Shown: in pieces, positions 2,590-52,594 of the stretch
How the letters are laid out: each line of letters opens with the position of its first letter
How positions within the stretch are numbered: the first letter of the stretch is position 1
DNA from: Eledone cirrhosa
Lineage: Eukaryota
DNA: 64,000 bases
Reading direction: 5' to 3'
NCBI GenBank assembly: GCA_964016885.1
Contig: OZ024741.1
Location: 58,776,001-58,840,000 of the forward strand
The notes under the pieces: model-generated
What the model saw: only the letters and a program-made list of their open reading frames with translations
Database searches by the model: none
Told to the model about the DNA's origin: nothing
Translations under genes and position numbers: made by a program

Positions 2590-4213
2590 TCATCATCATC
2601 ATCATCATCAACGTTTAACGTCCGTGTTCCACGCTTGCATGGGTTTGGACGGGGGTAGTCCCACTTGAGGCAAGAGTGATTGTCTTGCTCGCATAGGACT
2701 GTCTGGCAGGTTTTCTACAGTTGGATGCCCTTCCTAACACCAACCACATTTACAGTGTGGGTCTGGGAGGTTTTTACCGTGTTGCCTACACGGCCACATT
2801 ACAGCGTGGACTGTGTGTTTTTTTGTCGTGACACCTACACGATCTCATTTGTTTCGGCCTGGATGGTGTGGCACCAACACAACTTTACATAGAACGGGGT
2901 GGCGTGGATGGGGGTATTTTGTTAGAGATGCCTACTGGCTGTAGTAGGTTTTACTATGTATTTAGGTAAGGCGGGTCTTCTCTGTTACTGAGTACCGCCA
3001 AAGGTCTCGGTCCAGTGACATTGTCTTGGAGAGGTGTAAGTGTGTGAGGTCGGAGTTTATCAGCTCGTCCCAGGTTTTTCTAGGTCTGCCTATTCCGTGG
3101 CTACCGTCTATCTTTATTGCCCTGCACTTTGTTATACAGCTATCGACTTTCATGCGCATCATGTGTCCATACCAACGTAGCCTTCTCTCGAGTAAACAAC
3201 ATCTGATCCCTCTTATTTCTAATTTTTTCCTTAGTTCGTTTATGCTTTGCCGTTCACGTATATTACTGTTACACATCCAGCGGAGCATGCAAGCTTCGTT
3301 CCTCTCTAGTCTGCGTATATCCTCTGCACACAATGCCCAGGTCTCACTGCCATGCAACATTGCTGTTCGTATGTAGGCATCGTACAACCTGCCTTTCATT
3401 TTTAGGGAGAACCCTTTAGCAGCTAATAGTGGTATAAGCTCTCTGAACTTTTTCCAACCAGTTCTGACTCTAGCTACTGTACTTTCAGAGCACCCTCCCC
3501 CACTGCTGATTTTATCACCCAGGTAATGGAAACTGTCCACTATTTCTATAGAACCCTCTGCGCAATTGAAAGAGCTAGTATTTTGTGGGCACTTGCTGCT
3601 ACTTATTGCACCAGAGCACCGGCCACATGTAAAATCTATGTTCTTAGTTAGCTTACCTGTGATCCCACTACATCTTTTATGCACCCATACTTTGCATTTA
3701 GGACATAAAATGGAGTTTCTACCTACGCCTTTCCTACACACCGAGCACGACCATTTCCCAGAAGGGACCGCCGCCTTATTTTCTTTCCTACAAACTAGAA
3801 CTTTAGTCTTAGCCAGGTTAATTTTAAGGCCTTTTGATTCTAGGCCGTGCTTCCATGTTTGGAATTTCTTCTCTAGCTCGGCCATTGATTCCGCTATGAG
3901 TGTCAGGTCGTCTGCGTATAGGAGTTCCCATGGGCAGCCGGTCTTGAACTCCTCTGTTATAGCCTGAAGGGCAATAATAAATAGTAGGGGGCTGAGAACA
4001 GAGCCCTGATGGACGCCAACTTTTACGCTAAACTCTTCACTATATTCGTTGTTAATTCTAACCTTGCTGACTGTTTCTTTATACATGGCTTGTATAGCTC
4101 TCACAAGCCATTTGTCAACGCCTAGTTTTCTAAGAGCCCACCAGATAATGGAGCGGGGGACTCTGTCGAAGGCTTTCTCCAAGTCGACAAAAGCTAAGTA
4201 GAGGGGTTTACCT
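2588..4213 (-). mobile_element. 5'-truncated RTE-clade LINE, near-identical to 42351-44003
   Basis: Uninterrupted ORF 2962-4182 ([23 protein letters not shown]) almost identical to the C-terminal part of ORF 40488-43604; same 3' UTR and (GAT)n tail; TA repeats at both ends. Confidence 0.95.
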
Positions 4214-4261
4214 ATATATGATGGTCTTTAAATATATATATATATATATCATAATAATAAT

Positions 4262-10265: not shown

Positions 10266-12717
10266 GGGAAAATATAACAGTTGAACAGTTGCATTTGGCT
10301 CTTAGAAAAACCAGCAAATGGAAATCCCCAGGAAAAGACAAAATACAAAATTTTTGAATAAATGCCTTCACAGAGTCTCATGAGCTGTTAACCCAACTTT
10401 ACAATGAAATAGTTAAGGAGCCAGAAAAGATACCATCATGGCTAGTTAACGGCATTACATTCCTGCTTCTGAAGAATGATGAGACAAACAATCCCAAAAA
10501 TTACAGACCGATAACTTGCTTGACCACAATGTATAAAATTTTAACATCAGTCCTAACTGAATATACATATGACCACCTGATAACAAATGACCTATTTCCC
10601 ATTGAGCAGAAAGGGTGTAAACGAGGCTCATATGGCTGTAAGGATCAGCTTTTGGTTAACAAAATGATACTGGAAGATTGTCATAATAGACACAAAAATC
10701 TATCAATTGCTTGGATAGATTATAAAAAAGCATTTGATAGTTTGCTACACAGTTGGATTAAAAAATGTTTAGAGATTTTCAAAATATCTCCCGTTGTCAG
10801 GAGGTTTTTGTCATTCAGTATGAAGACATGGAAAACGACACTCCTTTTGAATAGTGAAACAAAATCACTGGAAGCTGGAGAAATTAATATTAATTGTGGA
10901 ATTTTTCAGGGTGACTCTTTATCACCGCTTTTATTCTGCATCGCACTTATACCATTAAGTAAAATGCTCAATGAAACAAAACATGGATATAAAGTCTATG
11001 ACAAAACCATTGATCACTTGTTCTACATGGATGACCTGAAACTATTTGCAAAAAATGATGAACAACTGCAAGGCCTATTATCCACTGTGGAGCAGTTCAG
11101 TGATGACATTAAAATGGAGTTTGGACTAGATAAATACGCCAAAGCAACGTTCACCAGAAGAAAGCTGCTGAAAAGTTCAGACATTAATCTTGATCGAGGG
11201 AATGTGATAAGAGAACTTGATCAAGAGGAAACTTACAAATATCTAGGTGTTTGTGAAGGAGACGGAATCAAGCACTCGACAATGAGGGAAAGGATAAGGA
11301 AGGAATGTTACCGCAGAGTAAGAGCAATCTTAAGAACAGAATTGAATGCAAGGAATAGGATCGATGCCATAAACACGCTTGCCACACCGGTAGTAACCTA
11401 CAGTTACAATGTCATCAACTGGTCACGCACAGAGATCCGTAGGCTCGATACAAAAATTCGAAAATTCTTAACCATGCACAGAATGCATCATCCTAAGGCA
11501 GATACAGATAGAATATATCTCCCTTGGAAAGAAGGAGGACATTAGGTTAATCCAGTTTGACATTGCATTGAAAACTGCAACAATTGGATTATCTACATAT
11601 CTAAGGGAATCACATGATTGGATGATCAAACTCGTTTTGAAACACGAAAGCATCAAAAGATCATATTCCATTACAAAAGATGCACAAAGATACAGTAATG
11701 GACTACAAATTTCAGAAGTCCCATTTACTGCTGAAATGGAAAACACAGAAAAAGCAGAGCAGGTAAAAGTAACTGCAAAGAAAGAACTGCTACAGAAACT
11801 GGCTAAGAAATGGCAAGAAAAGCCTCTGTATGGAAAATACCCAGAACGAGCTAACAATCCTGATGTTGACAAAACTTTAACCCATCAGTGGTTGGCATCC
11901 TCTGGACTGAAATCGGAGACTGAAGGACTGATTATATCAGCACAAGATAAGTGTCTGCCAACAAAAAATTACCAAGCCAACATAATAAAAAATGGATGCA
12001 GCCCATTATGCCGTGTATGTAAAAAACAACCAGAGACCATTGACCATATAATTTCAATGTGCAGTCTTATAGCTCCAACCGAATACCTAAACAGGCATGA
12101 CAGAGCTGCACAATACATACATTGGATAATGTGTAAGCATTTTGACCTGCCCCATCAAAAGAATTGGTGGGAGCATCAACCACCTCCCATACTTGAAAAA
12201 GATCACATCTCAATCTTGTGGAACTTAGCATCCAAACAGACCGAAACATAGATGCAAATAGACCTGATATAATACTGAAGGACTTTAAAAAGAGGGTATG
12301 CCTGCTAATTGATATGTCCGTTCCAATAGACAAGAATGTATCTATAAAAACATTTGAAAAATTGAGCAAGTATAAGGACCTGGAGATAGAAATTGGAAAA
12401 ATGTGGAAATTGAGAACTAAAACAATACCAGTGGTTGTAGGCGCTCTAGGAATGATACCTAAGGGGTCTAATGATTACTTATCGCAAATCCCAGGAAACC
12501 CGCATATAGGAGAAATACAAAAGATAGTACTAATGGGAACTGCCCATATACTAAGGAAGATTCTGTCAATATAAGTACATCACAAGTCTAAACACCTAAA
12601 GATGCATGTGTGAGTATGTATGTTCTTTCTTGAACATGGCGGACCTTGTTGTCTCTTGAGGTCACTGGTTGTGACTTGGTGATAACTCTTATGAACATAA
12701 AGCAAGATAAATGCAGC

Positions 12718-12718
<1 letters not shown>
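10266..12718 (+). mobile_element. R4/Dong-clade RLE retrotransposon, 5' truncated, frameshifted (copy 1)
   Basis: ORFs 10520-11545, 11568-12251 and 12218-12574 are frameshifted pieces of ORF 13063-15564; preceded and followed by (TAA)n. Confidence 0.93.
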
Positions 12719-12769
<51 letters not shown>

Positions 12770-12771
<2 letters not shown>

Positions 12772-15708
12772 TTATGTGGAGTGAAGATGAAAAAACAAAG
12801 GAATTCCCACAAGAAATCTACTTGGCAAGAGAACATCAATCGCCAAATAAACCTTCTCCGATCTGACATAGAAATTTTAACAAACTATAAAGTAGGTGAA
12901 CATGTTAAACAAACTAAACTTAGAAAATTGAAAAAAAAGTACAGTATAAAATCAACATGTGACATAGACATGCTGATAGAAATAATCAAGCAAAAAGTGT
13001 CGGCCAAAGCTGCTTGTATAAGGCGCTTTTAAAAACGATCTAGATTCTACAAGGACAATAATATGTTCAAAAACAACCAAAGAAACTTCTACAGAAAAAT
13101 TGGTAAGTCAACAATAACTGCTAAATCAATACCACCCAAGGAGGAAGTGCAAGAATTCTGGGAAAAGATCTGGGCCGAAGAAAAAGTTCATAACATACAT
13201 GCCCCATGGATAGACAGACAAATGAAAGATACAGCTCACCTTGAGGAACAAACATGGGAAAATATAACAGTTGAACAGTTGCGCTTGGCTCTAAGAAAAA
13301 CCAGCAAATGGAAATCCCCAGGAAAAGACAAAATACAAAACTTTTGGATAAATGCCTTCACAGAGTCTCATGAGCTGTTAGCCCAACTTTACAATGAAAT
13401 AGTTAAGGAGCCAGAAAAGATACCTTCATGGCTAGTTAACGGCATTACATTCCTGCTTCCGAAGAATGATGAGACAAACAATCCCAAAAATTACAGACCG
13501 ATAACTTGCTTGACCACAATGTATAAAATTTTAACATCAGTCCTAACTGAATACACATATGACCACCTGATAACAAATGACCTATTTCCCATTGAGCAGA
13601 AAGGGTGTAAACGAGGCTCATATGGCTGTAAGGATCAGCTTCTGGTTAACAAAATGATACTGGAAGATTGCCATAATAGACACAAAAATCTATCGATTGC
13701 TTGGATAGATTATAAAAAAGCATTTGATAGTTTGCCACACAGTTGGATTGAAAAATGTTTAGAGATTTTCAAAGTATCCCCCGTTGTCAGGAGGTTTTTG
13801 TCATTCAGTATGAAGACATGGAAAACGACACTCCTTTTGAATAGTGAAACAAAATCACTGGAAGCTGGAGAAGTTAATATTAATTGTGGAATTTTTCAGG
13901 GTGACTCTTTATCACCGCTTTTATTCTGCATCGCACTTATACCATTAAGTAAAAGGCTCAATGAAACAAAACATGGATATAAAGTCTATGACAAAACCAT
14001 TAATCACTTGTTCTACATGGATGACCTGAAACTATTTGCAAAAAATGATGAACAATTGCAAGGGCTATTATCCACTGTGAAGCAGTTCAGTGATGACATT
14101 AAAATGGAGTTTGGACTAGATAAATGCGCCAAAGCAACGTTCACCAGAGGAAAGCTGCTGAAGAGTTCAGACATTAATCTTGATCGGGGGAACGTGATAA
14201 GAGAACTTGATCAAGAAAAAACTTACAAATATCTAGGTGTTTGTGAAGGAGACGGAATCAAGCACTCGACAATGAGGGAAAGGATAAGGAAGGAATGTTA
14301 CCGCAGAGTGAGAGCAATCTTAAGAACGGAATTGAATGCAAGGAATAGGATCGATGCCATAAACACGCTTGCCATACCAGTAGTAACCTACAGTTACAAT
14401 GTCATCAACTGGTCAAGCACAGAGATCCGTAGGCTCGATACAAAAATTCGAAAATTCTTAACCATGCACAGAATGCATCACCCTAAAGCAGATATAGATA
14501 GAATATATCTCCCTAGGAAAGAAGGAGGACGTGGGTTAATCCAGTTAGACATTGCGTTGAAAACTGCAACAATTGGATTATCTACATATCTAAGGGAATC
14601 ACATGATTGGATGATCAAACTCGTTTTGAAACACGAAAGCATCAAAAGATCATATTCCATTACAAAAGATGCACAAAGATACAGTAATGGACTACAAATT
14701 TCAGAAGTCCCATTTACTGCTGAAATGGAAAACACAGAAAAAGCAGAGCAGGTAAAAGTAACTGCAAAGAAAGAACTGCTACAGAAACTGGCTAAGAAAT
14801 GGCAAGAAAAGCCTCTGTATGGAAAATACCCAGAGCGAGCTAACAATCCTGATGTTGACAAAACTTTAACCCATCAGTGGTTGGCATCCTCTGGACTGAA
14901 ATCGGAGACTGAAGGACTGATTATATCGGCACAAGATCAGTGTCTGCCAACAAAAAATTACCAAGCCAACATAATAAAAAATGGGTGCAGCCCATTATGC
15001 CGTGTATGCAAAAAACAACCAGAGACCATTGACCATATAATTTCAATGTGCAGTCCTATAGCTCCAACCGAATACCTAAACAGGCATGACAGAGCTGCAC
15101 AATACATACATTGGATAATGTGTAAGCATTTTGACCTGCCCCATCAAAAGAATTGGTGGGAGCATCAACCACCTCCCATACTTGAAAAAGATCACATCTC
15201 AATCTTGTGGAACTTTAGCATCCAAACAGACCGAAAAATAGATGCAAACAGACCTGATATAATATTGAAAGACTTTCAAAAGAGGGTATGCCTGCTAATT
15301 GATATGTCTGTTCCAATAGACAAGAATGTATCTATAAAAACATTTGAAAAATTGAGCAAGTATAAGGACCTGGAGATAGAAATTGGAAAAATGTGGAAAT
15401 TGAGAACTAAAACAATACCAGTGGTTGTAGGCGCTCTGGGAATGATACCTAAGGGGTCTAATGATTACATATCGCAAATCCCAGGAAACCCGCGTATAGG
15501 AGAAATACAAAAGATAGTACTAATGGGAACTGCCCATATACTAAGGAAGATTCTGTCAATATAAGTACATCACAAGTCTAAACACTAAAGATGCATGTGT
15601 GAATATGTATGTTCTTTCTTGAACATGGCGGACCTTGTTGTCTCTTGAGGTCACTGGTTATGACTTGGTGATAACTCTTATGAACATAAAGCAAGATAAA
15701 TGCAACTG
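12770..15708 (+). mobile_element. R4/Dong-clade RLE retrotransposon (copy 2), 5' truncated
   Basis: RT + CCHC + RLE ORF; one stop at 13030-13032 separates the upstream in-frame part; ~145-bp 3' UTR near-identical to copy 1; (TAA)n both sides. Confidence 0.95.
13063..15564 (+). CDS. reverse transcriptase + CCHC zinc knuckle + restriction-like endonuclease (R4/Dong type), 833 aa
   Basis: NYRPITCL, DYKKAFDSLPH, GIFQGDSLSP, FYMDDLK, YKYLG; CRVCKKQPETIDHIISMC; RHD; RPDIILKD..IDMSVP..KLSKYKDL; PVVVGALG. Confidence 0.93.
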   Translation: MFKNNQRNFYRKIGKSTITAKSIPPKEEVQEFWEKIWAEEKVHNIHAPWIDRQMKDTAHLEEQTWENITVEQLRLALRKTSKWKSPGKDKIQNFWINAFTESHELLAQLYNEIVKEPEKIPSWLVNGITFLLPKNDETNNPKNYRPITCLTTMYKILTSVLTEYTYDHLITNDLFPIEQKGCKRGSYGCKDQLLVNKMILEDCHNRHKNLSIAWIDYKKAFDSLPHSWIEKCLEIFKVSPVVRRFLSFSMKTWKTTLLLNSETKSLEAGEVNINCGIFQGDSLSPLLFCIALIPLSKRLNETKHGYKVYDKTINHLFYMDDLKLFAKNDEQLQGLLSTVKQFSDDIKMEFGLDKCAKATFTRGKLLKSSDINLDRGNVIRELDQEKTYKYLGVCEGDGIKHSTMRERIRKECYRRVRAILRTELNARNRIDAINTLAIPVVTYSYNVINWSSTEIRRLDTKIRKFLTMHRMHHPKADIDRIYLPRKEGGRGLIQLDIALKTATIGLSTYLRESHDWMIKLVLKHESIKRSYSITKDAQRYSNGLQISEVPFTAEMENTEKAEQVKVTAKKELLQKLAKKWQEKPLYGKYPERANNPDVDKTLTHQWLASSGLKSETEGLIISAQDQCLPTKNYQANIIKNGCSPLCRVCKKQPETIDHIISMCSPIAPTEYLNRHDRAAQYIHWIMCKHFDLPHQKNWWEHQPPPILEKDHISILWNFSIQTDRKIDANRPDIILKDFQKRVCLLIDMSVPIDKNVSIKTFEKLSKYKDLEIEIGKMWKLRTKTIPVVVGALGMIPKGSNDYISQIPGNPRIGEIQKIVLMGTAHILRKILSI

Positions 15709-21718: not shown

Positions 21719-21763
<45 letters not shown>

Positions 21764-22050
21764 AAGGTATATATTGAGTTAAGAACTCAAAATAGTCTCT
21801 TACAATAAAATAACTCTAAGAAAGAGATATTTCTGAGCCGTATATTATAATAGAATATAAAAGTAAAATGAACACAGACATATATATATGTGTTTTCAAA
21901 TCGTAAGGGACCTGATTCGCTAAGGTGAAAAGAATACCAACTATAGACAATAGGGTTCGCTTGTCTCAATTTAAGAAAAAATTAAGAAAATAAATACAAA
22001 CCGGAATTGTGGTAACTACCAATCACCCAGACAACTTGTTGTTTCGCAAA

Positions 22051-22910
22051 GTTAATTGTGAATAGAAACTCCAATCCAAAGTTAATTGTGAATAGAAACA
22101 CCAATCCAAAGTTAATTGTGAATAGAAACTCCAATCCAAAGTTAATTGTGAATAGAAACTCCAATCCAAAGTTAATTGTGAATAGAAACTCCAATCCAAA
22201 GTTAATTGTGAATAGAAACACCAATCCAAAGTTAATTGTGAATAGAAACTCCAATCCAAAGTTAATTGTGAATAGAAACACCAATCCAAAGTTAATTGTG
22301 AATAGAAACACCAATCCAAAGTTAATTGTGAATAGAAACTCCAATCCAAAGTTAATTGTGAATAGAAACACCAATCCAAAGTTAATTGTGAATAGAAACA
22401 CCAATCCAAAGTTAATTGTGAATAGAAACACCAATCCAAAGTTAATTGTGAATAGAAACACCAATCCAAAGTTAATTGTGAATAGAAACTCCAATCCAAA
22501 GTTAATTGTGAATAGAAACTCCAATCCAAAGTTAATTGTGAATAGAAACACCAATCCAAAGTTAATTGTGAATAGAAACTCCAATCCAAAGTTAATTGTG
22601 AATAGAAACTCCAATCCAAAGTTAATTGTGAATAGAAACTCCAATCCAAAGTTAATTGTGAATAGAAACACCAATCCAAAGTTAATTGTGAATAGAAACT
22701 CCAATCCAAAGTTAATTGTGAATAGAAACACCAATCCAAAGTTAATTGTGAATAGAAACACCAATCCAAAGTTAATTGTGAATAGAAACTCCAATCCAAA
22801 GTTAATTGTGAATAGAAACACCAATCCAAAGTTAATTGTGAATAGAAACACCAATCCAAAGTTAATTGTGAATAGAAACACCAATCCAAAGTTAATTGTG
22901 AATAGAAACA
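22051..22910. repeat. 30-bp tandem array GTTAATTGTGAATAGAAACWCCAATCCAAA x28.7
   Basis: Units identical except T/A at position 20; unit matches the reverse complement of 23182-23213. Confidence 0.99.
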
Positions 22911-23164
22911 CGTATATTATAATATACGGCTCAGAAATATCTCTTTCTTAGAGCTATTTTGTTGTAAGAGACTATTTTGAGTTCTTAACTCAATATATAC
23001 CTTTGATATGTTCGGCTCCGTTAATTTGTTGAGCTATTTCAAATGTCGAGTAAACCTGGCTGCTATTTTTAGTGGTGTGGGTTTATGAGACACGCTAGGA
23101 TGCCATGTGCACTATTTTATGTATTTTTATATAGCATACTTAGATGTGTCTAGGATACTAATTC

Positions 23165-23239
23165 ATCACCCACTGATGAGCTTGGATTGGAGTTTCTATT
23201 CACAATTAACTTTGCGAAACACCAAGTTGTCTGGGTGAT
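23165..23239 (+). ncRNA. type I hammerhead ribozyme
   Basis: Stem I ATCACCCA (23165-23172) / TGGGTGAT (23232-23239); CTGATGA 23173-23179; stem II closed by GC 23180-23181 / GC 23214-23215; GAAA 23216-23219; short stem III CA..TG; GTC triplet 23229-23231, cleavage predicted after 23231. Confidence 0.88.
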
Positions 23240-24224
23240 TGGTAGTTACCACAATTCCGGGTTGTATTTATTTTCTTAATTTTTTCTTAAATTGAGACAA
23301 GCGAACCCTATTGTCTATAGTTAGTATTCTTTTCACCTTAGCGAATCTGGTCCCTTACGATTTGAACACATATATATATGTCTATATTCTATTATAATAT
23401 ATATATATATATACACATATATGTGTGTTAAATATATACATTTTTCTCTCTCTTGTATGTGTGTGTAAATATATATATATGCATTTGTATGTGTGTGTAA
23501 ATATATATATATGCATTTGTATGTGTGTGTAAATATATATATATATGCATTTTTCTCTCTCTTGTATAGACATTCGTTATTAATTCCCTCTCCAATCCAA
23601 CTTACTTCTCTACACAAAAGAAAGCAAGCAAAATTTAGTGCTGCTGTTGTATCAGTAAAAATTTTAAATCAATCTTCAAGTCCTGTGTGTTCACATTACT
23701 CTAGAATATTATTGCAGAAACATGGCATTCTATAGAAAAAGATAAGTGGCATTATTTAAAATCTGTTGAAATCTTCAATTCACTATTATTGTGATGACTG
23801 TGTGTCTAACATACTTACTTAAATAGCACGTCATATTAACAAACAGTACAACTTATAATCAGCTTACACTATCAAACCAAAGCACGCAAGAACACACAAA
23901 AAAGGTAAGCTACTGACACGCCAAGTGTGTAGGCTGGATTTTCAATTCTTGGTTGAATCTAATACACTTCGTTTATGATGTTCATATTGTTATTGTTTAC
24001 GTGTGTATTGTGTACTTGGTCAGTTTCATCTGATGAAATTTAGCAAATACACTGTTTACTAAAACACAATGACCATGCTGAAAGAATATTAATATAAATC
24101 TATATATACAATACTCTGTTTTTAACATTTTTTTCTTACTCGTGCGAAACTACAATTGCCAGATTTGAACATAATATTAAGGTAGAAATGATTCTTTAGT
24201 TTAGTCAAGTTTATGACAACCTTT

Positions 24225-40463: not shown

Positions 40464-43400
40464 TGACGAGAATGCGAGCACTCCTCATTGTTTCGACCGC
40501 GGACGGCTAACATAACCCCATCGCCCCCCGCCCCTCACCGCCCCCAACCCCCAAACGCAATCCAAAACTTCAGAGTTGGTACCATAAATGTAGGCACCCT
40601 AAAGGGTCGCGCTAACGAGGTTGTAGAAATGCTTGAACGTAAGGAGGTCGATGTTTGTTGTATTCAAGAGACCAGGTGGAGGGGTGGGTCTGCTAGGTTC
40701 ATTGAGGGTAAAAAACGATGTTATAAGCTTTTCTGGGTGGGAAACGACGATGGGCTGGGTGGAGTAGGAATCATGGTAGCAGAAAAGTGGGCAGATAAGA
40801 TAATAGACGTAAATAGAGTGAACGACAGAATAATTAAAATACGACTTGTCCTCAATAGAACTACGGTGACAGTAATATCTGCGTACGCACCCCAATCCGG
40901 ACTGCCCGGCACTATAAAAGACAGATTCTATGAGACACTGATGCTAACTACCTCCCAAATATCCGACAGTGACTATATAATTATCGCAGGCGACCTAAAT
41001 GGTCACGTTGGACAACATTGTGACGGCTACGACGAAATCCATGGAGGCTATGGGTTTGGTACTAGAAATGAGGAAGGCGCCAGAATCCTGGAATTCTGTG
41101 ATGCAAATAACCTAACTATCTGTAACACTAACTTCAAAAAACGTGACAATCACCTGATCACCTATAGATCCGGGGAACACACAAGCCAGGTAGATTATAT
41201 CCTTACCAGAAGACGTGACAGAGTGTCTGTTGTTAACACTAAATCCCTCCCCCATGAAGAATGCACCTCCCAACATAGACTGATAATTAGCGACCTCATA
41301 GTCAGGACGAGACGTACTCGACAACAGAAGAGGACTATCCTCAGGAGGAAAATATGGAAGCTAAAGGACCCCACAGCCAGGAATAAATTTCAAAGCATAT
41401 TACTTGATGCTTTCGACAGTAAGGAAGAACACTTAGAGTCGGACAATATAGAGGGAGAGTGGGAATTTCTGAAAGCAAACCTGCTGTTGGCGACAGACGA
41501 GGTCTGTGGCTGGAGCAGGCCTGTAGGCAGGAGGAGAGTAACATGGTGGTGGAACAGTAAGGTGGAGGGGTCAATTAAGGCCAAAAAGCAGGCTTGGAAA
41601 GTATGGCGGGATGGGGGAAGTAGAGAGGACTATCAAGTGGCCAGGAGGGAGGCTAGGAGACAAGTGTACTTAGCAAGAAGGGAAGCTGAGGAAAGAAAGT
41701 TCAAGCATGTTCTACAACGCGATGACCAAAAACGTGAGGTGTTCAGGATTGCTAGGCAATGCGTCAAGGAAAACCGTGATATTGTCGGGGAGAAGTGTGT
41801 ACTAAACGACGATGGCACACTTGCCATCACCGACGCTGATAAGAAGGTAGCTTGGAAGTGTTACTATGAAAGGCTACTAAATGAGGAGAATAATTGGGAG
41901 AAAGGCAGTCTCCCCCATATCGACCCAATAGAGGGACCAGCAGTGTTAGTCGAGGGGAGTATAATAAGTAAGGCAATCAAGGATTTGAAGACTGGTAAGG
42001 CGGCTGGGCCTTCGGAAATAGTTGCTGAGATGCTGAAGGCATCTGGCACGGTGGGACACACCATGGTCACCCGCATAGTTAACCAAGTCGTACAGAATGG
42101 GGTTGTTCCGAAGGACTGGCATAGCAGCATCATCGTTAACTGTTATAAGGGTAAAGGAGACGCCCTAGATAGGAGTAACTATAGAGGCATTAAATTAATC
42201 GACCAGGTCATGAAGGTCACGGAAAAAGTAATAGCGCAACTAATCAGAGAGAGAATTGACCTAGATGAAATGCAGTTCGGGTTTGTGTCAGGCAAAAGTA
42301 CCACAGACGCTCTTTTCATAGTACGACAACTACAGGAGAAGTACCTAGCTAAAGGTAAACCCCTCTACTTAGCTTTTGTCGACTTGGAGAAAGCCTTCGA
42401 CAGAGTCCCCCGCTCCATTATCTGGTGGGCTCTTAGAAAACTAGGCGTTGACGAATGGCTTGTGAGGGCTATACAAGCCATGTATAAAGAAACAGTCAGC
42501 AAGGTTAGAATTAACAACGAATATAGTGAAGAGTTTAGCGTAAAAGTTGGCGTCCATCAGGGCTCTGTTCTCAGTCCACTACTATTTATTATTGCCCTTC
42601 AGGCTATAACAGAGGAGTTCAAGACAGGCTGCCCATGGGAACTCCTATACGCAGACGACCTGACACTCATAGCGGAATCAATGGCCGAGCTAGAGAAGAA
42701 ATTCCAAACATGGAAGCACGGCCTAGAGTCAAAAGGACTTAAAATTAACCTGGCTAAGACCAAAGTACTAGTTTGTAGGAAAGAAAACAAGGCGGCGGTC
42801 CCTTCTGGGAAATGGTCGTGCTCGGTGTGTAGGAAAGGCGTAGGTAGAAACTCCATTTTATGTCCTAAATGCAAAGTATGGGTGCATAAAAGATGTAGTG
42901 GGATCACAGGTAAGCTAACTAAGAACATAGATTTTACATGTGGCCGGTGCTCTGGTGCAATAAGTAGCAGCAAGTGCCCACAAACTACTAGCTCTTTCAA
43001 TTGCGCAGAGGGTTCTATAGAAATAGTGGACAGCTTCCGTTACCTGGGCGATAAAATCAGCAGTGGGGGAGGGTGCTCTGAAAGTACTGTAGCTAGAGTC
43101 AGAACTGGTTGGAAAAAGTTCAGAGAGCTTATACCACTATTAGCTGCTAAAGGGTTCTCACTAAAAATGAAAGGCAGGTTGTACGATGCCTGCATACGAA
43201 CAGCAATGCTGCATGGCAGTGAGACCTGGGCATTGTGTGCAGAGGATATACGCAGACTAGAGAGGAACGAAGCTTGCATGCTCCGCTGGATGTGTAACAG
43301 TAATATACGTGAACGGCAAAGCATAAACGAACTAAGGAAAAAATTAGAGATAAGAGGGATCAGATGTTGTTTACTCGAGAGAAGGCTACGTTGGTATGGA

Positions 43401-44003
43401 CACGTGATGCGCATGAAAGTCGATAGCTGTATAACAAAGTGCAGGGCAATAAAGATAGACGGTAGTCACGGAATAGGCAGACCTAGAAAAACCTGGGACG
43501 AGCTGATAAACTCCGACATCACACACTTACACCTCTCCAAGACAATGTCACTGGACCGAGACCTTTGGCGGTACTCAGTAACAGAGAAGACCTGCCTTAC
43601 CTAAATATATAGTAAAACCTACTCCAGCCAGTAGGCATCTCTAACAAAATACACCCCGTCCCACCACCACCACCCCCACCCGATCCACACCACCCCGTTC
43701 TATGTAAAGTTATGTTGGTGCCGCGCCATCGAGGCCGAAACAAATGAGATCGTGTAGGTGTCACGACAAAAAAACACACAGTCCACGCTGTAATGTGGCC
43801 GTGTAGGCAACACGGTAAAAACCTCCCAGACCCACACTGTAAATGTGGTTGGTGTTAGGAAGGGCATCCAACTGTAGAAAACCTGCCAGACAGTCCTATG
43901 CGAGCAAGACAATCACTCTTGCCTCAAGTGGGACTACCCCCGTCCAAACCCATGCAAGCGTGGAACACGGACGTTAAACGTTGATGATGATGATGATGAT
44001 GAT
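40464..44003 (+). mobile_element. near full-length RTE-clade LINE with intact ORF, 3' UTR and (GAT)n tail
   Basis: Single 1038-codon frame; ~380-bp 3' UTR ending AACCCATGCAAGCGTGGAACACGGACGTTAAACGTT(GAT)n; TA repeats on both sides. Confidence 0.96.
40488..43604 (+). CDS. APE endonuclease + reverse transcriptase with PHD-like C4HC3 insert
   Basis: [41 protein letters not shown]; [36 protein letters not shown]; true start codon uncertain (TTG). Confidence 0.93.
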
Positions 44004-44214: not shown

Positions 44215-44580
44215 ACACACTGTACTACTGTCACATACATAGACATACACACTGTCTCATACATACACATACACACTGTACTACTGTCACATACATACAC
44301 ATACACACTGTACTACTGTCACATACATACACATACACACTGTACTACTGTCACATACATACACATACACACTGTACTACTATTTCATACATACACACAC
44401 ACACTGTACTACTGTCTCATACATACACAGTGCATTACTGCCTCATACATACACACACACTGTACTACTGTCACATACATACACATAGTACTACTGTCTC
44501 ATACATACACATACACACTGTACTACTGTCTCATACATACACACACACACTGCATTACTGTCTCACACACACACACACAC
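44215..44580. repeat. ~30-bp minisatellite CACTGTACTACTGTCACATACATACACATACA
   Basis: About 12 diverged units grading into the adjacent satellite. Confidence 0.9.
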
Positions 44581-47500
44581 ACAGTCTGACTGTCACATAC
44601 ACACACAGACTGACTGTCACATACACACACAGTCTGACTGTCACACACACACACTGTCTGACTGTCACATACATACACACAGTCTCACTGTCAGGTACAC
44701 ACACAGTCTGACTGTCACACACACACACAGTCTGACTGTCACACACACACACAGTCTGACTGTCACATACACACACATAGTCTGACTGTCACACACACAC
44801 AGTCTGACTGTCACACACACACACAATCTGACTGTCACATACACACACACAGTCTGACTGTCACACACACACCCAGTCTGACTGTCACACACACACCCAG
44901 TCTGACTGTCACACACACACCCAGTCTGACTGTCACACACACACACAGTCTGACTCTCACACACACAGTCTGACTGTCACACACACACAGTCTGACTGTC
45001 ACACACACACAGTCTGACTGTCACACACACACACAGTCTGTCACGCACACACACAGACTGACTGTCAGGTACACACACAGTCTGACTGTCACACACACAG
45101 TCTGACTGTCACACACACACACAGTCTGACTGTCACACACACACAGTCTGACTGTCAGACACACACAGTCTAACTGTCACACACACAGTCTGACTGTCAC
45201 ACACACAGTCTGACTGTCACACACACAGTCTGACTGTCACACACACACACAGTCTGACTGTCACACACACACACACACAGTCTGACTGTCACACACACAC
45301 AGTCTGACTGTCACATACACACACAGTCTGACTGTCACACACACACAGTCTGACTGTCACACACACACACAGTCTGACTGTCACACACACACACACAGTC
45401 TGACTGTCACACACACACACACAGTCTGACTGTCACATACACACACACAGTCTGACTGTCACATACACACACACAGTCTGACTGTCACACACACACAGTC
45501 TGACTGTCACACACACACAGTCTGACTGTCAGGTACACACACAGTCTGACTGTCACACACACAGTCTGACTGTCACACACACACACAGTCTGACTGTCAC
45601 ACACACACAGTCTGACTGTCACACACACACACACAGTCTGACTCAGGTACACACACAGTCTGTCACACACACACACAGTCTGACTGTCACACACACACCC
45701 AGTCTGACTGTCACACACACACACAGTCTGACTGTCACACACACACAGTCTGACTGTCACACACACACAGTCTGACTGTCACACACACACACAGTCTGAC
45801 TGTCAGGTACACACACAGTCTGACTGACACACACACACACAGTCTGACTGTCACATACACACACAGTCTGACTGTCACACACACACACTCTGACTGTCAC
45901 ACACACACAGTCTGACTGTCACACACACAGTCTGACTGTCACACACACACACACAATCTGACTGTTACACACACACACACACACAGTCTGACTGTCACAT
46001 ACACACACACAGTCTGACTGTCAAGTACACACACAGTCTGACTGTCACATACACACACAGTCTGACTGTCACATACACACACAGTCTGACTGTCACACAC
46101 ACAGTCTGACTGTCACACACACACAGTCTGACTGTCACACACACACAGTCTGACTGTCACACACATAGTCTGACTGTCACATACACTCACAGTCTGACTG
46201 TCACACACACACACAGTCTGACTGTCACACACACACAGTCTGACTGTCACATACACACACAGTCTGACTGTCACACACACACAGTCTGCCAGTCACACAC
46301 ACAGTCTGACTGTCACACACACACAGTCTGACTGTCACACACACACAGTCTGACTGTCACACACATAGTCTGACTGTCACATACACACACAGTCTGACTG
46401 TCACACACACACACAGTCTGACTGTCACATACACACAGTCTGACTGTCACATACACACACAGTCTGACTGTCACACACACACAGTCTGACTGTCACAGAC
46501 ACACACAGTCTGACTGTCACACACACACACACAGTCTGACTGTCACACACACACACAATCTGACTGTCACACACACACAGTCTGACTGTCACACACACAC
46601 AGTCTGACTGTCACACACACACAGACTGACTGTCACACACACACAGACTGACTGTCACACACACACAGTCTGACTGTCACACACACACACAGTCTGACTG
46701 TCACACACACACACACAGTCTGTCACACACACACAGTCTGACTGTCACACACATAGTCTGTCACACACACAGTCTGACTGTCACACACACACAGTCTGAC
46801 TGTCACACACACAGTCTGACTGTCACACACACACAGTCTGACTGTCACATACACACAGAGTCTGACTGTCACATACACACAGTCTGACTGTCACATACAC
46901 ACACACTCTGACTGTCACACACACAGTCTGACTGTCACACACACAGTCTGACTGTCACACACACACAGTTTGACTGTCACACACACAGTCTGACTGTCAC
47001 ACACACACAGTCTGACTGTCACATACACACAGAGTCTGACTGTCACATACACACACAGTCTGACTGTCACACACACACACACTCTGACTGTCACACACAC
47101 AGTCTGACTGTCACACACACACACACACACAATCTGACTGGCACACACACACACAGTCTGACTGTCACATACACACACACAGTCTGACTGTCACACACAC
47201 ACAGTCTGACTGTCACACACACACACAGTCTGACTGTCACACACACACACAGTCTGACTGTCACACACACACACACTCTGACTGTCACACACACAGTCTG
47301 ACTGTCACACACACACACACACAGTCTGACTGTCACATACACACACAGTCTGACTGTCACACACACACACTGTCTGACTGTCACATACATACACACAGTC
47401 TCACTGTCAGGTACACACACAGTCTGACTGTCACACACACACACAGTCTGACTGTCACACACACACACAGTCTGACTGTCACATACACACACATAGTCTG

Positions 47501-50500
47501 ACTGTCACACACACACAGTCTGACTGTCACACACACACACAATCTGACTGTCACATACACACACACAGTCTGACTGTCACACACACACACAGTCTGACTG
47601 TCACACACACACAGTCTGACTGTCACACACACACACACAGTCTGACTCAGGTACACACACAGTCTGTCACACACACACACAGTCTGACTGTCACACACAC
47701 ACCCAGTCTGACTGTCACACACACACACAGTCTGACTGTCACACACACACAGTCTGACTGTCACACACACACAGTCTGACTGTCACACACACACACAGTC
47801 TGACTGTCAGGTACACACACAGTCTGACTGACACACACACACACAGTCTGACTGTCACATACACACACAGTCTGACTGTCACACACACACACTCTGACTG
47901 TCACACACACACAGTCTGACTGTCACACACACAGTCTGACTGTCACACACACACACACAATCTGACTGTTACACACACACACACACACAGTCTGACTGTC
48001 ACATACACACACACAGTCTGACTGTCAAGTACACACACAGTCTGACTGTCACATACACACACAGTCTGACTGTCACATACACACACAGTCTGACTGTCAC
48101 ACACACAGTCTGACTGTCACACACACACAGTCTGACTGTCACACACACACAGTCTGACTGTCACACACATAGTCTGACTGTCACATACACTCACAGTCTG
48201 ACTGTCACACACACACACAGTCTGACTGTCACACACACACAGTCTGACTGTCACATACACACACAGTCTGACTGTCACACACACACAGTCTGCCAGTCAC
48301 ACACACAGTCTGACTGTCACACACACACAGTCTGACTGTCACACACACACAGTCTGACTGTCACACACATAGTCTGACTGTCACATACACACACAGTCTG
48401 ACTGTCACACACACACACAGTCTGACTGTCACATACACACAGTCTGACTGTCACATACACACACAGTCTGACTGTCACACACACACAGTCTGACTGTCAC
48501 AGACACACACAGTCTGACTGTCACACACACACACACAGTCTGACTGTCACACACACACACAATCTGACTGTCACACACACACAGTCTGACTGTCACACAC
48601 ACACAGTCTGACTGTCACACACACACAGACTGACTGTCACACACACACAGACTGACTGTCACACACACACAGTCTGACTGTCACACACACACACAGTCTG
48701 ACTGTCACACACACACACACAGTCTGTCACACACACACAGTCTGACTGTCACACACATAGTCTGTCACACACACAGTCTGACTGTCACACACACACAGTC
48801 TGACTGTCACACACACAGTCTGACTGTCACACACACACAGTCTGACTGTCACATACACACAGAGTCTGACTGTCACATACACACAGTCTGACTGTCACAT
48901 ACACACACACTCTGACTGTCACACACACAGTCTGACTGTCACACACACAGTCTGACTGTCACACACACACAGTTTGACTGTCACACACACAGTCTGACTG
49001 TCACACACACACAGTCTGACTGTCACATACACACAGAGTCTGACTGTCACATACACACACAGTCTGACTGTCACACACACACACACTCTGACTGTCACAC
49101 ACACAGTCTGACTGTCACACACACACACACACACAATCTGACTGGCACACACACACACAGTCTGACTGTCACATACACACACACAGTCTGACTGTCACAC
49201 ACACACAGTCTGACTGTCACACACACACACAGTCTGACTGTCACACACACACACAGTCTGACTGTCACACACACACACACTCTGACTGTCACACACACAG
49301 TCTGACTGTCACACACACACACACACAGTCTGACTGTCACATACACACACAGTCTGACTGTCACACACACACACTGTCTGACTGTCACATACATACACAC
49401 AGTCTCACTGTCAGGTACACACACAGTCTGACTGTCACACACACACACAGTCTGACTGTCACACACACACACAGTCTGACTGTCACATACACACACATAG
49501 TCTGACTGTCACACACACACAGTCTGACTGTCACACACACACACAATCTGACTGTCACATACACACACACAGTCTGACTGTCACACACACACACAGTCTG
49601 ACTGTCACACACACACCCAGTCTGACTGTCACACACACACCCAGTCTGACTGTCACACACACACACAGTCTGACTCTCACACACACAGTCTGACTGTCAC
49701 ACACACACAGTCTGACTGTCACACACACACAGTCTGACTGTCACACACACACACAGTCTGTCACGCACACACACAGTCTGACTGTCAGGTACACACACAG
49801 TCTGACTGTCACACACACAGTCTGACTGTCACACACACACACAGTCTGACTGTCACACACACACAGTCTGACTGTCAGACACACACAGTCTGACTGTCAC
49901 ACACACAGTCTGACTGTCACACACACAGTCTGACTGTCACACACACAGTCTGACTGTCACACACACACACAGTCTGACTGTCACACACACACACACACAG
50001 TCTGACTGTCACACACACACAGTCTGACTGTCACATACACACACAGTCTGACTGTCACACACACACAGTCTGACTGTCACACACACACACAGTCTGACTG
50101 TCACACACACACACACACAGTCTGACTGTCACACACACACACACAGTCTGACTGTCACATACACACACACAGTCTGACTGTCACATACACACACACAGTC
50201 TGACTGTCACACACACACAGTCTGACTGTCACACACACACAGTCTGACTGTCAGGTACACACACAGTCTGACTGTCACACACAGTCTGACTGTCACACAC
50301 ACAGTCTGACTGTCACACACACACACAGTCTGACTGTCACACACACACAGTCTGACTGTCACACACACACACACAGTCTGACTCAGGTACACACACAGTC
50401 TGTCACACACACACACAGTCTGACTGTCACACACACACCCAGTCTGACTGTCACACACACACACAGTCTGACTGTCACACACACACAGTCTGACTGTCAC

Positions 50501-52483
50501 ACACACACAGTCTGACTGTCACACACACACACAGTCTGACTGTCAGGTACACACACAGTCTGACTGTCACATACACACACAGTCTGACTGTCACACACAC
50601 ACACTCTGACTGTCACACACACACAGTCTGACTGTCACACACACAGTCTGACTGTCACACACACACACACAATCTGACTGTCACACACACACACACACAC
50701 AGTCTGACTGTCACATACACACACACAGTCTGACTGTCAAGTACACACACAGTCTGACTATCACACACATACAGTCTGACTGTCACATACACACACAGTC
50801 TGACTGTCACATACACACACAGTCTGACTGTCACACACACAGTCTGACTGTCACACACACACAGTCTGACTGTCACACACACACAGTCTGACTGTCACAC
50901 ACATAGTCTGACTGTCACATACACTCACAGTCTGACTGTCACACACACACACAGTCTGACTGTCACACACACACAGTCTGACTGTCACATACACACACAG
51001 TCTGACTGTCACACACACACAGTCTGCCAGTCACACACACAGTCTGACTGTCACACACACACACACAGTCTGACTGTCACACACACACAGTCTGACTGTC
51101 ACACACACACAGTCTGACTGTCACACACATAGTCTGACTGTCACACACACACACAGTCTGACTGTCACACACACACACAGTCTGACTGTCACATACACAC
51201 AGTCTGACTGTCACATACACACACAGTCTGACTGTCACACACACACAGTCTGACTGTCACAGACACACACAGTCTGACTGCCACACACACACACACAGTC
51301 TGACTGTCACACACACACACAATCTGACTGTCACACACACACAGTCTGACTGTCACACACACACAGACTGACTGTCACACACACACAGACTGACTGTCAC
51401 ACACACACAGTCTGACTGTCACACACACACACAGTCTGACTGTCACACACACACACACAGTCTGTCACACACACACAGTCTGACTGTCACACACATAGTC
51501 TGACTGTCACACACACAGTCTGACTGTCACACACACACAGTCTGACTGTCACACACACAGTCTGACTGTCACACACACACAGTCTGACTGTCACATACAC
51601 ACAGAGTCTGACTGTCACATACACACAGAGTCTGACTGTCACATACACACACACTCTGACTGTCACACACACAGTCTGACTGTCACACACACAGTCTGAC
51701 TGTCACACACACACAGTTTGACTGTCACACACACAGTCTGACTGTCACACACACACAGTCTGACTGTCACATACACACAGAGTCTGACTGTCACATACAC
51801 ACACAGTCTGACTGTCACACACACACACACTCTGACTGTCACACACACAGTCTGACTGTCACACACACACACACACACAATCTGACTGGCACACACACAC
51901 ACAGTCTGACTGTCACATACACACACACAGTCTGACTGTCACACACACACAGTCTGACTGTCACACACACACACAGTCTGACTGTCACACACACACACAC
52001 TCTGACTGTCACACACACAGTCTGACTGTCACACACACACACACACAGTCTGACTGTCACACACACACACAGTCTGACTGTCACACACACACAGTCTGAC
52101 TGTCACACACACACACAGTCTGACTGTCACACACACACACAGTCTGACTGTCACACACACACAGTCTGACTGTCACACACACACACAGTCTGACTGTCAC
52201 ACACACACAGTCTGACTGTCACACACATACACAGTCTGACTGTCACACACACACACACAGTCTGACTGTCACACACACACAGTCTGACTGGCACACACAC
52301 ACACAGTCTGACTGTCACACACACACAGTCTGACTGTCACACACACACACAGTCTGACTGTCACACACACACACAGTCTGACTGTCACACACACACAGTC
52401 TGACTGTCACACACACACAGTCTGACTGTCACACACACACAGTCTGATTGTCACACACACAGTCTGACTGTCACACACACACA
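44581..52483. repeat. 7.9-kb satellite: ACAGTCTGACTGT core + variable (CA)n, unit ~18-28 bp, with higher-order repeats
   Basis: Hundreds of cores; rare variant AGTCTCACTGTCAGGTAC recurs at 44681, 47397 and 49401. Confidence 0.98.
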
Positions 52484-52594
52484 CCTGATAAATGACCCTC
52501 CTACCATGAATGATAATTGTCTTTAGTGGCTAAATTTGAGACCATTACTATTATTATCAGCCCTGGTGGCTGTTAAAGAAACTATTATAGCAAG

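Follow-up and report, generated by a model that had tools for sequence, protein, structure and literature searches.

We found that a minisatellite in the genome of Eledone cirrhosa is built from stem II of a predicted hammerhead ribozyme and sits exactly where the two inverted arms of a Penelope-derived insertion meet. The analysis covered a 64,000-nucleotide stretch of contig OZ024741.1 (positions 58,776,001 to 58,840,000; hereafter the window, numbered from its first letter) and 180 loci of the host element across the genome. The observed position of the array, its unit, its restriction to this one locus, the architecture of the element family and the short tandem repeats at other joins lead us to propose, with a probability of about 0.55, that the array was seeded as a stutter of 2–4 copies when two cDNA arms were joined, and was later expanded as DNA into a single-locus minisatellite.

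Structure and age of the array

The minisatellite occupies 22047–22911 on the minus strand. A preliminary description of this DNA had reported about 29 in-place copies of a segment restarting at a CAA microhomology, and this is what is present: 28 full 30-mers and a further 25 nt (28.8 copies, ~865 bp), bounded by TTG/CAA. Open frames that run across the array were rejected as genes, being by-products of the 30-nt unit. The source of the unit is stem II of a complete type I hammerhead motif on the plus strand at 23165–23239, which comprises an 8-bp stem I, CTGATGA, GC...GC, GAAA and GTC, with predicted cleavage after C23231. The two GC arms of stem II lie at 23180–23181 and 23214–23215 and enclose an insert of 32 nt (23182–23213) rather than the 30 nt first given. 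The 30-nt period of the array is dictated by a TTG/CAA direct repeat of 3 nt, with TTG at 23182 and 23212; this pair is one of 31 3-mer direct pairs with a spacing of 10–60 nt within the 75-nt motif.

The array lies between the two arms of the insertion. The left arm (21758–22079, minus strand) is a 5'-truncated copy of the ~495-bp element, running from hammerhead stem II to a long 3' end with an ~85-nt tail, and at its outer end is a (TA)n tract (21722–21761) that is the likely target site. It holds the 3' half of the hammerhead (GC, GAAA, stem III, GTC and the 3' strand of stem I; minus strand), which the preliminary description had correctly placed next to the array, although with a start at 22023: the segment spans 22022–22047, is the reverse complement of 23214–23239 with one mismatch, and is abutted by the array. 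Also as described, the array stands at the 5' end of the arm that lacks CTGATGA. It ends exactly at the central join, in a partial unit, and overlaps by 1 nt a perfect 18-bp palindrome (22911–22928) that is a short fold-back of the right arm's start. The right arm (22915–23410, plus strand) is non-coding and consists of the tail of a preceding unit followed by one unit to a short 3' end, with an (AT)n-rich linker and outer flank at 23370–23422.

Judged from its conservation and pairing, the motif is a predicted type I hammerhead ribozyme. Its folding z was -2.95. Across 39 copies from several subfamilies, the core columns (CUGAUGA, GAAA and UH in order, with stem I open) were invariant or nearly so, and 91% of 857 cells in stems I, II and III paired, compared with 27–40% with slid partners, although kinship among the 39 copies may inflate the former figure. 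Stem III exchanges G-C and A-U in 13 of these copies, and stem I A-U and G-C in 3. Basal stem II pairs in only 81%, and in the window's subfamily it is just 2 bp. The Rfam hammerhead models gave no match in the window (E 1) or at five other loci (E 10). Whereas other subfamilies close stem II with GCAA/TTGC (4 bp), that of the window, which accounts for 90 of the 149 motifs examined, has GCTTG, a form that breaks two stem II pairs and makes the TTG direct repeat. The microhomology thus owes its presence to the loss of two stem II pairs in this subfamily, indicating that the match between the unit and stem II arises through lost pairing. The earlier placement of a hammerhead, of type I as the motif shows, within a Penelope-type element was right. 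Close to the motif, a TATA-like run lies ~30 nt ahead of a TCATCA motif where stem I begins (23120–23170), which may mark a transcription start. By eye, a possible GT...AG intron-like stretch follows the ribozyme at 23240–23342.

The array units are identical save at one variable site, which on the plus strand is T in 13 units and A in 16. The states of this site match at a lag of 15 units in 14 of 14 comparisons, a result equalled by 46 of 20,000 shuffles, indicating that a block of 15 units was duplicated; this duplication was the last growth step. The interspersed 13:16 variant and the lag-15 block argue that the units are not direct copies of one RNA template, evidence that is silent on the first few units. 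We also compared the array with its arms, which carry eight private changes in 739 bp. Four of these are an AG pair common to both arms, and AG in an intact 5' context was seen at the window locus alone. A sibling source of the AG/TG variants was rejected, as two copies on contig C24 have TG but are only 89–92% like the arms. The remaining four arm-specific changes predict 4.5 singletons in the array if it is as old as the insertion; none was seen (P = 0.011), which argues that the array is younger than the arms and that its bulk reflects recent growth at the DNA level. The T/A variants and the 15-unit duplication noted in the preliminary description are real, and its view that at least part of the expansion happened in DNA is right. 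Later turnover erased the size of the seed, for which other loci suggest 2–4 copies.

The host element and the ends of its arms

The host element is Penelope-derived (retrozyme-like), a non-coding unit of ~495 bp with stops in all three sense frames. In the 3.0-Gb genome, where the window lies on contig C2, we counted 109 exact matches to a stem II 22-mer and 731 to a downstream 19-mer, giving at least 731 element arms. The 180 loci examined comprise the 30 best matches, 71 from other searches including that with the stem II 22-mer, 77 that complete the first 100 of the 731 downstream 19-mer matches, and 2 more. Head-to-head pairs with an inverted, 5'-truncated arm were found at 120 of the 180 loci, and 84 of these 120 combined one long and one short 3' end. 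The insertion in the window does likewise, with a long-ended left arm, a short-ended right arm, (TA)n flanks, a join marked by the 18-bp palindrome, and the array lying between the arms. At two loci (L006 and L144), hammerhead motifs lie in same-strand tandem ~497 bp apart. The flanks of the 180 loci yielded no autonomous partner, and GIY-YIG frames were present in 2 of 7 tested ORFs flanking the element. The unit, which is without a single RT and GIY-YIG ORF, was rejected as an autonomous Penelope element. Among these loci, L024, L030 and L169 (C13, 27.3–27.7 Mb) represent one insertion in three copies with an identical join, a segmental duplication, and in L162 the sequence skips, on one strand, from unit position 165 to 43, joining two frequent arm-end zones.

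The behavior of the element fits that of a Penelope pLTR-only insertion: the target is AT-rich, as seen in the (TA)n flanks, a tail is present on one end and the repeat contains a hammerhead. The Penelope pattern consists of an inverted truncated arm, a tail on one end and a junction palindrome (PMC3846280, PMC8557442); work on the Penelope RT in vitro explains it by priming of both strands at two RNA sites (PMC11167929). Penelope and Poseidon pLTR-only insertions (PMC3846280, PMC8557442, PMC11167929, PMC4209133) resemble those studied here in their head-to-head 5'-truncated arms, one-arm tail, join palindrome, AT-rich targets and type I hammerhead. By contrast, the unit studied here has no RT/GIY-YIG frame, its stem II carries the 32-nt insert and its tail is ~85 nt rather than 30–40 nt. 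From its sequence, the element would also fit the non-LTR retrozymes of animals except in size. These are held to be Penelope derivatives and are likewise non-coding tandem units with one type I hammerhead each (PMC7229834; bioRxiv 10.64898/2026.07.22.740005), whereas the unit here is ~495 bp against ~300 bp and occurs mostly in dispersed inverted pairs, not long tandems. A search for expression listed no RNA data set containing the element.

Other repeats are present in the window. An open 1045-aa LINE frame (40467–43604, plus strand) has endonuclease, RT and PHD domains, and a partial copy of this LINE lies at 2962–4227 (minus strand). An 843-aa RT frame (10358–15564, plus strand) lies after a partial, broken tandem copy of its own element, and an ~8-kb satellite (44570–52484) is made of (CA)n and a short spacer with a period of 22–24. 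Finally, a near-perfect G+C-rich hairpin beside a (TA)n tract (2427–2528), similar sequence to which flanks other loci, is likely a small mobile element.

Arm 5' ends were counted by hand after removal of 5 of 101 rows that were duplicates or fragments. The core/stem II zone (positions 162–188 of the unit, 27 nt) contained 22 of 96 ends, whereas the 31 nt lying upstream of it had 2 of 74 (p = 4e-5). In an unbiased set of 100 arms, the stem II zone had 8 of 86 ends (0.27% per nt) and the 14-nt zone around the cut site had 9 of 100 (0.64% per nt), with 2 of 100 arms starting exactly at the predicted cut; in this set the stem II zone is the weaker of the two, and ~19 further arms, also counted by hand, have their ends within the unit's first 60 nt. 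On contig C1, L213, L249 and seven other arms begin at the predicted hammerhead cut or close to it. Arms ending at the predicted cut may be insertions from self-cleaved RNA, and a transcription start near stem I could yield both the arm-end cluster and the scarcity in the 31 nt upstream.

Tandem repeats at other insertions

The preliminary description had set as a test whether independent insertions carry arrays of the same 30-mer in the same register. None was found among the 109 exact and 731 downstream anchors. The exact array junction was absent elsewhere in the genome, with 28 of 28 matches at the window locus, and among the 90 copies with the TTG pair none besides the window locus carries this duplication. 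A search for the 3' stem II anchor repeated at 20–50 nt returned the window locus, a 37-mer x2 at L002 that includes CTGATGA and starts at the stem I/core border, and one unrelated match. The same anchor in its other-subfamily form gave a sole, unrelated match, and a search with the 5' stem II anchor added L161, with a 17-mer x3.9. In any register, ribozyme-region repeats at other loci amount to these 37-mer and 17-mer repeats and an 11-mer x2 at L234. A control anchor in the tail, a region without a ribozyme, was repeated at three element loci; repeats of the ribozyme region are no commoner than at this control. A second control anchor, downstream of the ribozyme, returned an unrelated 39-bp satellite and one further match, its gap limit having missed a 16-nt repeat at L255. 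Most matches in the 5'-anchor, other-subfamily and control searches were unrelated repeats, with one locus checked per place and C19 and C672 left out, and diverged copies were missed because the searches require exact anchors. The array is thus unique to its locus and the expansions of other copies use other units (11–37 nt), both outcomes that the preliminary description had named as telling against its proposal. Its idea that RNA structure delimits the unit survives in a weak form, through a slip-off at the base of stem II that is common to L161 and the arm ends clustered at that site, and is otherwise unsupported: the 3' boundary follows the microhomology and the unit does not recur.

Across the 180 loci we classed by hand 18 short, element-derived tandem repeats. 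Eight of the 18 were at central joins, which hold 0.14 of the element bases (p = 0.0014; 0.016 at a share of 0.20). All four repeats with three or more copies were at joins, and the ten away from joins were all of ~2 copies. Stutters in copies other than that of the window have 2–4 copies and units of 11–37 nt. Four of the eight junction stutters (window, L161, L156 and L242) are colinear with the RNA, and only those of the window and L161 lie inside the ribozyme. The other four could only have come from a DNA template: the unit bridges the two arms at L152 and L190, is inverted at L255 and is scrambled at L147. At L161 (2909–3003; C7, 93.49 Mb), the 17-mer x3.9 and a 6-nt piece lie within stem II at a join; this repeat shares its 5' boundary with the window array and has a different 3' boundary. 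At L255 (953–1000), a 16-mer x3 stands inverted at a 5' end without a partner arm, and is a repeated fold-back copying of cDNA. Collectively, these eight joins in 180 loci resemble polymerase theta templated insertions, with flank-derived direct, inverted or chimeric inserts and microhomology.

Origin of the array and its meaning

We infer the priming, stop, slip-back and expansion steps as follows. A Penelope RT-endonuclease acting in trans would have used the two nicked strands of a (TA)n target as primers on the RNA of the element, from two start sites, and the left cDNA would have halted at the base of stem II, a frequent stop zone. During end joining, a polymerase copying the cDNA end (polymerase theta-like, or the RT on DNA) may have slipped back by 30 nt through the closest TTG repeat. 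One unit would then have gained an A>T change, and slippage or unequal exchange would have built 15 and then ~29 units, recently. The head-to-head pairs (120/180) and the combinations of long and short ends (84/120) agree with two-strand, two-site priming by the Penelope RT (PMC11167929). Polymerase theta scars show reiterated priming with overlapping, error-prone and sometimes inverted inserts that average ~10 bp (PMC5068794). They share with the joins seen here an insert that is flank-derived, microhomology-primed, reiterated and sometimes inverted; our units are longer (11–37 nt) and the enzyme is putative. Against the join-stutter reading, 30-nt inserts are long by the standard of that average, 4 of the 8 junction stutters, the window's included, are colinear with the RNA, and arm ends cluster at the core/stem II zone, with the L161 slip-off at the base of stem II. 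The lack of a partner in the flanks and the erased seed size weigh on the same side. The window locus alone cannot separate an RNA from a DNA template.

It is possible, though we think it unlikely, that the slip-back was made on the RNA, by the Penelope RT, which at the base of stem II would have returned to copy the loop a few more times, with growth at the DNA level afterwards. Such slippage is consistent with an array at the 3' end of the cDNA and colinear with the RNA, with the shared 5' boundary of the L161 17-mer x3.9 and the start of the L002 37-mer at the stem I/core border, with the arm ends in 162–188 and with the relationship of Penelope RTs to telomerase RT (PMC8557442, PMC4209133). 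However, the unit is present at no second locus among the 109 exact and 731 downstream anchors, 3' boundaries differ between loci, stutters are equally common in a region without the ribozyme and half of the junction stutters need DNA. Moreover, the stem II zone yields 0.27% of ends per nt against 0.64% for the cut-site zone in the unbiased set, basal stem II has only 2 bp in this subfamily, and a repeat ladder is absent from the main text of PMC11167929.

We hold it to be improbable that the insertion was clean and that replication slippage at TTG, aided by the inverted arms, made a dimer much later that was then expanded. Against such a history stand the partial unit in which the array stops, right at the join, the confinement of repeats with three or more copies to joins (4/4), and the absence of this duplication from the 90 copies that share the TTG pair. 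Late slippage is favored by the greater age of the arms, by the 10 of 18 repeats away from joins, all of ~2 copies, and by the classic origin of minisatellites from short direct repeats at their flanks, with incomplete units at the ends (PMC3389668).

Markedly less probable is a strong form of RT slippage, in which a stalled Penelope RT realigns on the RNA and carries out processive, structure-bounded, telomerase-like repeat addition, with the window array and the L161 17-mer as its footprints. Telomerase repeat addition yields one fixed unit every time, with realignment on a short terminal repeat. Repeat addition is reported for the bacterial RT DRT10 (PMC12632851); as in both systems, an RNA segment is found here as a tandem DNA repeat with a short terminal repeat for realignment, but the unit differs per locus and long arrays do not recur. 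Regarding the earlier proposal that telomerase-like copying seeded the array during retrotransposition, seeding at integration is likely, whereas the telomerase-like step is improbable. An assembly artefact beside the inverted repeat, affecting the array or its length, is very improbable: the exact 15-unit duplication might have come from a mis-join, assemblers have difficulty with the inverted structures of Penelope elements (PMC8557442) and no read spans the array, but the variant pattern is structured, small versions are found at other loci, and unitigs from two runs of one sample, perhaps the assembly source, cover 22858–22908, at the array's right end only, at a summed depth of 77–379 with no listed difference. 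A RAD-seq run and a small run did not reach the end of the array and are uninformative.

Retroelement-derived minisatellites that were seeded at insertion and grew later have already been described (PMC3389668). As in those cases, for which a seed at insertion and slow later growth are proposed, the unit here comes from a retroelement at short direct repeats and the end unit is incomplete; here the source is a ribozyme stem-loop, the site is an arm-arm join and the microhomology is only 3 nt. Microhomologies and local duplications also mark the 5' junctions of R1 and R2 (PMC2718515). The main texts covered, a part of the literature, held no report of reiterative copying by a Penelope RT or of ribozyme-bounded minisatellite birth. 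The array is a clear case of a minisatellite arising at the join of a retroelement. If it is true that the RT adds repeats on its own RNA, this would be a direct link between Penelope and telomerase, for which genomic support is weak. The several hundred insertions of this family record how Penelope arms are joined, a step left open by the first in vitro work, and their junction stutters, 8 in 180 loci, provide a simple readout of which of the two, host end joining or the RT, completes a Penelope insertion.
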